The position numbers and the translations under genes were made by a program. Under the pieces are notes generated by a model. It had not been told where the DNA came from. It ran no database searches and worked only from the letters and a program-made list of their open reading frames with translations. Positions 1-5,399 of a DNA stretch of 7,997 bases are shown in pieces. Position 1 is the stretch's first letter. Every line of letters starts with the position of its first letter. The DNA lies in the IMG/VR virus record IMGVR_UViG_2671181111_000009; one strand, 5' to 3'. This DNA comes from a virus. Its lineage: Duplodnaviria; Heunggongvirae; Uroviricota; Caudoviricetes.

Positions 1-41
1 CACCTGTGTTGTTCTGAGGTGAGCATATCACCTCTGTTCAG

Positions 42-383
42 GTGGCCAAATTCAGTGTGCCACTTCATGTTCAGGCTTATGCAAACGCTGAATTTATTGC
101 TGCTTTTAATCCAAATGTTGCGCTGGCACTACTGGATGAACGGGAAAGAAACCTGCAATACATCAAAAGCCGCGATCAGGAGAACGAGGAAATTGCGCTA
201 ACGGTAGGGAAGTTGCGTGTTGAGCTGGAAGCAGCAGAGAACAACCTTATTGATAGTGAATGCCATGTTGCTGAACTGGAAGAAGCGCTACGCGATAAGC
301 AGGCGTTACTTGAAGCCTCAGAAAAGCGCATAGCAGAACTGGAGGCACAGACAGTTACCGTTAAAGAGGTTGGAGATGCTTGA
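42..383 (+). CDS. Ea22-like coiled-coil phage protein (113 aa from GTG; initiation context unclear, possibly 5'-disrupted)
   Basis: Translation contains LLDERERNLQYIKSRDQENEEIALTVGKLRVELE, matching the central segment of phage lambda Ea22 as I recall it; heptad-like coiled-coil C-terminus; no ATG anywhere in frame; in-frame TGA at 15-17. Confidence 0.45.
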   Translation: MAKFSVPLHVQAYANAEFIAAFNPNVALALLDERERNLQYIKSRDQENEEIALTVGKLRVELEAAENNLIDSECHVAELEEALRDKQALLEASEKRIAELEAQTVTVKEVGDA

Positions 384-459
384 TAGTTTTGCGCTCGTTG
401 CACTGGTTGGCATTGTAGCGTTGATTTGGGTGACATCCGGGAATCGGAGGCATAAGTGA
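376..459 (+). CDS. Small hydrophobic peptide, 27 aa (MLDSFALVALVGIVALIWVTSGNRRHK), single predicted TM helix with basic tail
   Basis: ATG at 376 preceded by AGAGG (365-369) with 6-nt spacer; ATG overlaps the upstream stop (GATGCTTGA); its TGA (457-459) overlaps the GTG start of the next ORF (GTGA). Fills the 73-bp intergenic gap exactly. Below the 60-aa cutoff of the ORF track. Confidence 0.3.
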   Translation: MLDSFALVALVGIVALIWVTSGNRRHK

Positions 460-890
460 ACGACAAAGAACTGATTAAAGAAATCAAAGAGCGTATCAGC
501 AGTTTGGATGTGCGAGACAATGTTGAACGCCGTGCTTATGAAATTGCTCTGGCATCGCTGACAGCAGAGCCGGTGGCGTGGAAGGTAACCTTCACGCAAA
601 TTGACCGTGAATATAACACGTTCACTGGTATGTATTCTGACAAAGCAGAAGTCGAACGGTGGGTGCGGCTGCATAAAGCATGTAATTTTCGGGCAGATAT
701 AACACCGCTTTATACCGCCCAGCCAGTGCCGGTAACTCCGGATGCCTGGATAAGCTGTAGTGAGCGAATGCCAGAAATGGGAGAGCGACAATGCTATGTG
801 TTAGCAGCTGACTTTAAAAACAACTACCCACCAAACATTGGCGCAGTTGTACGGAACGGATGTTGTGCGCATCCGGCAAAACCATCATGA
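456..890 (+). CDS. Phage hypothetical protein with DUF551-like C-terminal region (appears to lack the end of that domain)
   Basis: GTG start at 456 with strong SD GGAGG (446-450, 5-nt spacer); 144-aa ORF; C-terminal stretch PDAWISCSERMPEMGERQCYVLAADF resembles the start of the DUF551 family found next to Ea22-like genes in enterobacterial prophages (from memory). Confidence 0.5.
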   Translation: MNDKELIKEIKERISSLDVRDNVERRAYEIALASLTAEPVAWKVTFTQIDREYNTFTGMYSDKAEVERWVRLHKACNFRADITPLYTAQPVPVTPDAWISCSERMPEMGERQCYVLAADFKNNYPPNIGAVVRNGCCAHPAKPS

Positions 891-3841: not shown

Positions 3842-3940
3842 TGATTTTATTTTGACTGATAATGACCTGTTCGTTGCAACAAATTGATAAGCAATGCTTT
3901 TTTATAATGCCAACTTAGTATAAAAAAGCAGGCTTCAACG
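3841..3940 (-). other. attL (B-O-P'): P' arm with arm-type Int sites, 15-bp core (3915-3929), short B arm
   Basis: Reverse complement reads ...TGAAGCCTGCTTTTTTATACTAAGTTGGCATTATAAAAAAGCATTGCTTATCAATTTGTTGCAACGAACAGGTCATTATCAGTCAAAATAAAATCATTATT, i.e. chromosomal B arm, lambda core and lambda P' arm; arm sites overlap the int stop as in lambda. Confidence 0.88.
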
Positions 3941-5259: not shown

Positions 5260-5275
5260 GAGCTATTAACTATTT

Positions 5276-5385
<110 letters not shown>

Positions 5386-5399
5386 TCACATGGCGCTTT

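Follow-up and report, generated by a model that had tools for sequence, protein, structure and literature searches.

A probable 27-codon mini-gene for a single-pass membrane peptide between the Ea22-like and DUF551-family genes of a lambda-like prophage

The stretch of 7,997 nucleotides analysed here (the window; IMG/VR record IMGVR_UViG_2671181111_000009) probably contains a genuine mini-gene, known from two alleles, that would encode a single-pass membrane peptide. We consider the mini-ORF a probable gene because a diverged second copy keeps its frame with mostly silent changes. At the level of the sequence, the frame, the length, the start and both overlaps with the flanking genes are conserved across alleles that differ at 12% of their bases, and the substitutions between them follow a coding-type pattern. 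The mini-ORF is intact in the window copy, which lies within a decaying prophage. The coordinates of the features are listed in Table 1, where numbers preceded by ‘L’ denote the loci used for comparison.

Table 1. Features in and around the mini-ORF, and related small ORFs. Positions are those of the window unless a locus is named.
Feature	Position	Strand	Remarks
Mini-ORF	376..459	+	ATG 376-378, 27 sense codons, TGA 457-459; predicted peptide MLDSFALVALVGIVALIWVTSGNRRHK
Shine-Dalgarno-like AGAGGT of the mini-ORF	365..370	+	Within the last K-E-V codons of the upstream Ea22-like ORF
Overlap of mini-ORF start and Ea22-like stop, 8 nt, ATGCTTGA	376..383	+	Ea22-like TGA = 381-383; identical in L039
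Predicted transmembrane core, codons 5-19, FALVALVGIVALIWV	388..432	+	Kyte-Doolittle 15-residue mean
Polar, basic C-terminal tail, codons 20-27, TSGNRRHK	433..456	+	From the sequence; TSGNWRHK in L039
GGAGG Shine-Dalgarno of the downstream GTG-start gene	445..449	+	Embedded in mini-ORF codons 24-25 (CGG AGG)
GTGA, 4-nt overlap of mini-ORF stop and DUF551-family GTG start	456..459	+	Overlap kept in L039
Module common to window and L039	351..582	+	~87% identity, gap-free; short Ea22-like tail, mini-ORF, N-terminal 42 codons of the downstream gene
Ea22-like gene, 3' fragment (Ead_Ea22)	67..383	+	Short-tailed, without the usual C-terminal domain, ending ...RIAELEAQTVTVKEVGDA before the stop; phrog_34708 matches end to end
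IS911 copy, terminal 66 bp, inserted in the Ea22-like gene	1..66	-	99% identity to annotated IS911
DUF551-family gene	456..890	+	Truncated, frame-fused by a 337-bp deletion at ~838 relative to L001
‘WPEAF’ ORFs	L014 1999-2082; L013 2592-2675; L004 5122-5205; L005 4618-4701; L039 12742-12828	+	After DUF551, eaa or hypothetical genes

The original prediction had placed a 27-codon ORF with its own Shine-Dalgarno sequence between the two flanking genes. This ORF is indeed present, running from the ATG at 376 to the TGA at 457-459 and specifying MLDSFALVALVGIVALIWVTSGNRRHK, and it is preceded by AGAGG at 365-369 with a spacer of 6 nt before the ATG. The GTGA junction, in which the mini-ORF stop is joined to the GTG of the DUF551-family gene, was likewise found at 456-459. 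Two details had to be corrected. The gap, given as 73 bp, measures 72 nt from the upstream stop (TGA, 381-383) to the GTG at 456, and the ATG, which was thought to overlap the upstream stop codon, lies off that codon, the overlap being one of 8 nt between the two ORFs (ATGCTTGA). The duplex formed by the mini-ORF Shine-Dalgarno sequence with the 3' end of the 16S rRNA was calculated at -6.5 kcal/mol both in the window and in L039. This pairing ranks in the top ~7% of window positions and is close to the values for xis (-6.6) and int (-5.8). Both alleles therefore have a recognizable ribosome-binding site, namely AGAGGT at 5-6 nt before the ATG.

The second allele was recovered by a degenerate scan for the N-terminal residues of the mini-ORF product, which retrieved a seventh viral contig, L039. 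The L039 allele, MLDSFALVALVGILALFLVTSGNWRHK, is located at positions 12238-12321 and has 27 codons, the same ATG, TGA and Shine-Dalgarno sequence, and no indels, while both junction overlaps, ATGCTTGA and GTGA, are identical to those of the window. The neighbours of the mini-ORF in L039 are intact, and each gene in this run abuts or overlaps the next. The upstream gene encodes a short Ea22-like protein of 85 amino acids (WP_001289357.1; Pfam Ead_Ea22) that ends in ...IVTIKEVTNA before the stop, and the downstream gene, which starts with GTG-AAC-GAC, encodes a protein of 140 amino acids.

In the 81 nt at positions 376-456, the two alleles differ at 10 sites. Six of these differences are synonymous and all six are located at codon position 3. 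The remaining four lead to the replacements V14L, I17F and W18L in the predicted helix, which exchange hydrophobic for hydrophobic or aromatic residues, and R24W in the tail. For the mini-ORF this amounts to a pS of 0.305, a pN of 0.065 and a dN/dS of 0.17, and very similar values were obtained for the adjacent coding segment at 456-581 (16 differences in 126 nt; pS 0.339, pN 0.062, dN/dS 0.14). The other five frames either are interrupted by stops in at least one of the alleles, or have dN/dS values of at least 0.41. Upon permutation of the same ten changes, six or more were synonymous in 0.45% of cases (P = 0.0045), and in 0.23% of cases when the ORF was also to remain intact (P = 0.0023); ten random substitutions left the ORF intact only 40% of the time. 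Fisher tests, which overall gave P values from 0.002 to 0.02, yielded a P value of 0.012 when non-synonymous sites of the mini-ORF were compared with its own synonymous sites, and of 0.0017 when they were compared with the synonymous sites of the neighbouring gene. It should be noted that all of these values concern one allele pair with 10 substitutions. For this one pair, the check on frame conservation that had been proposed with the original prediction turned out in favour of coding, since L039 keeps the frame with six synonymous and four conservative changes and with neither a frameshift nor a stop.

The product had been described as a single hydrophobic helix followed by a basic tail, and this architecture is predicted from the sequences of both alleles, the tails ending in RRHK and WRHK, respectively. 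The strength of the hydrophobic core was scored as the Kyte-Doolittle mean over 15 residues, with a cut-off of 2.5. For residues 5-19 this mean is 2.94 in the window allele and 3.11 in the L039 allele. A survey of 95 kb of related loci, with 640 small ATG-ORFs, revealed a single further distinct ORF that attains 2.94. Both alleles would thus combine a membrane-length hydrophobic segment with a charged flank, as expected for small single-pass membrane proteins. A toxin or membrane-modulator activity, at which the original prediction hinted, would be putative.

We also considered whether the gap might contain an RNA element, a terminator or a promoter. This idea was dropped, as 339-460 showed no terminator-like, promoter-like or Rfam matches. 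Likewise, there is no stable RNA structure within 339-485, the RNA of 355-485 folding no better than its shuffled versions (z = +1.3).

The window corresponds to the left arm of a prophage that is lambda-like and integrated at the attachment site of lambda. The order of its genes is Ea22-like (Ead_Ea22), mini-ORF, DUF551, ORF6N anti-repressor-like, AntA/AntB, xis, int, att core, and the host genes ybhC and ybhJ. Since an exact copy of the 15-bp lambda att core, GCTTTTTTATACTAA, is located between int and ybhC (3915-3929, minus strand), the prophage occupies the classical lambda attB site. Lambda Ea22 normally comprises an N-terminal domain followed by a coiled coil and then a C-terminal domain (PMC10834534); the Ea22-like variant of the window ends after the coiled coil, and PGAP labels its gene as a pseudogene missing the C-terminus. 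The IS911 copy that interrupts the Ea22-like gene has its transposase gene on the minus strand, beyond the left edge of the window, and in L009 the other half of the Ea22-like gene is found ~1.25 kb upstream. On the other side of the mini-ORF, the comparison with the otherwise identical L001 reveals a deletion of 337 bp (L001 8640-8975; junction at 828-838 of the window) through which the DUF551 gene has lost its 3' end and the ORF6N gene its 5' end, along with the spacer, and the BLAST pieces that flank this deletion overlap by 11 nt of the query. The predicted location of the mini-ORF between an Ea22-like and a DUF551-like gene therefore holds for L001, L005 and L039, but not for the window itself, in which the upstream gene is an IS911-truncated fragment and the downstream gene has lost its 3' end. 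The start of the DUF551-family gene as annotated by PGAP in L004 and L005 is the GTG at window position 456. In L001, PGAP splits a continuous DUF551 ORF of 176 codons into an N-terminal ‘pseudogene’ (8257-8383, window 456-582) and an internally started CDS (8359-8787, window 558 onward), and this split is likely due to a mosaic junction at ~582.

The patch that contains the mini-ORF has two mosaic junctions. One is the Ea22 ‘KRIAELE’ motif, at which different Ea22 C-termini are joined, and the other is codon 3 of the DUF551 gene. Indeed, the same DUF551 protein body carries either MNDKELIK/MNNKELIK or MSTFTDKELIK as its N-terminus, and in other prophages the DUF551 gene begins with ATG..TFTDKELIK and is preceded by other small genes. 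An early leading reading of the patch was that of a recombination scar. This was abandoned, because 351-582 is homologous to the intact module of L039 and the patch is therefore a native module. As a separate observation, the coiled-coil motif (E/S)KRIA(E/K)LE, present at 324-350 of the window and in the Ea22-like genes of L012, L015 and L016, is a recurrent join to unrelated Ea22 C-terminal domains and has the appearance of a recombination hot spot within the Ea22 family.

The window-type allele is represented by ~14 copies from E. coli, six IMG/VR contigs and two metagenome contigs. All of these are 100% identical over 214-541 and they are therefore uninformative with respect to selection. 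In a BLASTN search of complete E. coli genomes with 335-465, six identical places were found in 5 of 5426 genomes and no others, which corresponds to a frequency of ~0.1%. The Ea22-like protein of 85 amino acids encoded next to the L039 allele occurs on roughly 130 draft contigs. Besides L039, no relative of 351-460 was detected in any collection searched. Specifically, phages gave no matches in BLASTN with the region or in TBLASTN with the peptide, and only N-terminal matches to long Ea22 proteins in TBLASTN with the 85-aa protein; plasmids gave no matches in BLASTN with L039 12190-12330. In a library of 5.8 billion protein clusters, none of the six frames of the patch revealed a relative: the mini-ORF frame had no match, the Ea22 frame read through its stops matched only two Shigella Ea22 fragments, and with the three antisense frames the sole match was a spurious antisense prediction at this very locus. 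Zero matches were obtained with phmmer against 1.84 billion representatives, and neither allele is present in a collection of 15 billion proteins. No family match was found in Pfam and PHROGs at E-values up to 1 (0.01 for the L039 allele in Pfam), nor in NCBIfam, PADLOC and PDB sequences at E-values up to 10, and none of the papers searched contains the peptide string. Degenerate scans returned at least 14 matches in genomes, all unrelated and of high or low GC content, and at least two near-identical copies in metagenomes. These scans used the core ALVGIVALIW, which is unable to match the L039 allele, and further alleles may therefore exist. RefSeq PGAP did not call the mini-ORF on the identical sequence in five complete genomes, and the expectation that annotation would miss it is borne out by its absence from both RefSeq annotation and the protein catalogues. 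If the gene is real, this absence would be explained by its length of less than 30 codons.

It could be argued that the mini-ORF is a fortuitous and non-functional frame in A-poor, G+T-rich junction or spacer DNA, and that the apparent selection reflects chance over 10 substitutions together with overlapping constraints, which are imposed by the last codons of the upstream gene at 376-383 and by the downstream Shine-Dalgarno sequence at 445-449. Indeed, a spanning ORF was kept in 84% of dinucleotide shuffles of the gap (ATG fixed, A-poor composition), so that the openness of the frame is by itself uninformative. Also compatible with this view are the rarity of the element, the finding of no homologue past one allele pair, the P values of 0.002-0.02, which are not overwhelming, and the Ea22-like partner, which is truncated relative to its family and carries the PGAP pseudogene label. 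However, a hydrophobic core as strong as that of the mini-ORF product was seen in only 0.28% of the same shuffles, and it is retained in both alleles. Moreover, all six changes at position 3 are silent, no indels have occurred across the 72 nt, and the divergence of 12.3% is the same as that of the adjacent coding sequence and well below the value of 0.34 for the synonymous sites of the neighbour. The central stretch at 384-444, which is clear of the overlapping constraints, contains five synonymous versus three conservative changes. A fortuitous ORF is thus a reading that deserves to be kept in mind, but that we consider unlikely.

Alternatively, the mini-ORF might be a coupling device only, the translation of which relays ribosomes from the Ea22-like gene to a weak downstream GTG, with a peptide that has no role of its own. 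Such a relay would fit with the preservation of the 8-nt and 4-nt overlaps in both alleles and with the GTG of the downstream gene directly following an in-frame stop. On the other hand, the downstream gene has a strong Shine-Dalgarno sequence itself (GGAGG, -9.5 kcal/mol in the window; GGAG, -6.4 kcal/mol in L039), the local RNA is unstructured so that there is no hairpin to open, and a pure relay would need neither the conserved amino acids nor the kept hydrophobic helix. These properties make a pure relay less likely, and in other prophages this downstream gene is expressed from an ATG and without such an ORF; we therefore regard this reading as improbable. Type I toxins such as TisB, Ibs and those of the Hok type are short and hydrophobic with a basic end, and by analogy the mini-ORF product could be taken for a toxin. 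It might also be the 3' remnant of a larger membrane-protein gene that was left by recombination, as the mosaic junctions on either side of the patch could suggest. Yet the position of the mini-ORF inside an operon, with neighbours that overlap it, fits neither of these origins. The arrangement of a type I toxin is not supported, because the mini-ORF has no promoter of its own and no antisense RNA candidate: a crude consensus scan returned no promoter-like sites on either strand in 1-1600, the sole site being at 1624-1653, and a structured leader was not detected. A remnant of a larger gene, or a frameshift fusion to Ea22, was ruled out by L039, in which an in-frame TAA lies four codons 5' of the mini-ORF ATG. 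There was consequently no longer ancestral ORF, and together with the intact genes on both sides this TAA marks a complete ORF, the sequence of which is common to no longer protein. Taken together, a toxin or remnant origin appears very improbable.

We thus favour the interpretation of the mini-ORF as a mini-gene, which would be part of the early-left (exo-xis / b-region) accessory operon of lambda-like E. coli/Shigella prophages. It would travel as a cassette consisting of the last ~10 codons of a short Ea22-like gene, the mini-gene, and the beginning of a DUF551-family gene with its GTG start and N-terminal segment; the boundary of this cassette is codon 3 of the downstream gene. Translation would take place from the mRNA of the pL operon and would be coupled to that of both neighbours. 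Initiation could involve the Shine-Dalgarno sequence of the mini-gene, or ribosomes that terminate 5 nt downstream at the Ea22-like stop, and ribosomes finishing at the mini-ORF TGA may be able to restart on the overlapping GTG. Because 27 residues stay in the ribosome tunnel until termination, the product would have to be inserted post-translationally into the inner membrane, presumably as one helix. According to the positive-inside rule, the N-terminus would then face outside and the basic tail would be cytoplasmic. Like other very small membrane proteins, the peptide may act by binding or perturbing a membrane component of the host or the phage. Tentatively, and as a possibility for which we would not claim much confidence, the mini-gene could be the founder of a new phage family of 27-residue membrane effectors that are expressed from pL at an early stage, along with the Ea22-like and DUF551-family proteins, and that alter a function of the host inner membrane (a protease, a transporter, division or the membrane potential), thereby biasing the lysis-lysogeny decision or excluding other phages. 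If this were true, the related tiny hydrophobic ORFs of the same operons would constitute a set of lambdoid accessory genes that has been overlooked. For now the impact is modest, as the element is rare and any function of its product would be putative.

The mini-gene probably represents a new family, with no annotated or catalogued counterpart, of a known kind, namely the small membrane proteins. E. coli has several very small inner-membrane proteins, such as YohP (27 aa), KdpF (29 aa), MgtS (31 aa) and AcrZ (49 aa) (PMC12648545), and unannotated transmembrane small ORFs were found by Ribo-seq to be common in pathogenic E. coli (bioRxiv 10.64898/2026.09.28.754932). The predicted peptide is similar to YohP, KdpF, MgtS and AcrZ in its size and in having one helix of ~15-19 residues that fills most of the chain; as in that class, a basic tail would set the orientation, and such proteins are often missed by annotation. 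It differs from them in that it has no sequence similarity to them, is prophage-borne, and is encoded within an operon by an ORF that overlaps both neighbours. With TisB, IbsC, ShoB and Hok/Gef it shares a short and hydrophobic chain with a charged end. Unlike these toxins, for which prophage-borne type I systems have been reviewed (PMC12648545), the mini-ORF has no detected antisense RNA, promoter of its own or structured leader, and would be co-translated within its operon. A Hok/Gef gene is annotated in the related prophage region L013. The DUF4014 family protein of L014 and L015 (72 aa) occupies the same slot between Ea22-like and DUF551 genes and is, like the mini-ORF product, tightly packed among its neighbours and hydrophobic, but no homology could be detected (a Pfam scan with the peptide returned nothing) and DUF4014 is 2.7 times longer. 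Lastly, the exo-xis region of lambda also contains small ORFs. These are accessory genes that are expressed early and bias the choice between lysis and lysogeny (PMC7093339, PMC10834534). The genes orf60a, orf61, orf63, orf73, ea8.5 and ea22 belong to the same genomic region and operon as the mini-ORF, whereas their products are soluble, none of them is a 27-residue membrane peptide, and they show no homology to the mini-ORF product.

The same operons contain further tiny ORFs that have a hydrophobic product and a conserved frame. One of these specifies a ‘WPEAF’ mini-protein of 27-28 amino acids, MTWPEAFTTVGIAMAVALVVYSICRWG, with the pattern M[TSN]WPEAF..VG.A.AVA...YS..RWG. It was found as four diverged copies among ~12 loci, plus one in L039. 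The ATG of the WPEAF ORFs overlaps the upstream stop and is preceded by GGAGG or GGGAGG; the WPEAF-like ORF of L039 has 28 codons and a GTG start. Leaving out the L039 copy, the four copies show 67-93% amino acid identity, an open frame and synonymous changes. The WPEAF protein resembles the mini-ORF product in its size, its single hydrophobic helix, its occurrence in the same operons and its start over the upstream stop, but it is unrelated in sequence and more widespread. None of the four loci examined has a PGAP annotation of WPEAF. In the NCBI protein collection, the exact sequence of 27 amino acids is listed on 79 contigs as a ‘bacteriophage protein’, and it clusters with DUF551 proteins of 121 amino acids from Shigella, so that WPEAF may be fused to DUF551 in some genomes. 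A further hydrophobic ORF of 27 amino acids, MTTTECIFLAAGFIFCVLMLADMGLVQ, is located in L003 (1069-1152, plus strand) between the DUF1382 gene and the next gene; it overlaps both neighbours and is unannotated. If the mini-gene is real, then, with two or more further tiny hydrophobic ORFs in these operons, the accessory regions of prophages are likely to be systematically under-annotated for membrane mini-proteins.

Two observations were made elsewhere in the window. At 1739-1827 on the plus strand, there is a match to the Rfam family sRNA-Xcc1 with a score of 68.3 bits (gathering threshold 53; E = 4e-11). The gap between the ORF6N and AntA genes in which it is located is unannotated. The match falls within an ORF of 67 amino acids that has no family match, and is preceded by a sequence at 1624-1653 that agrees with the sigma-70 consensus in 11 of 12 positions (TTGACA-18-TATATT). 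At 5262-5397, REP-like repeats are located between ybhC and ybhJ, with sub-threshold matches to naRNA4 of 41.7 and 34.6 bits.
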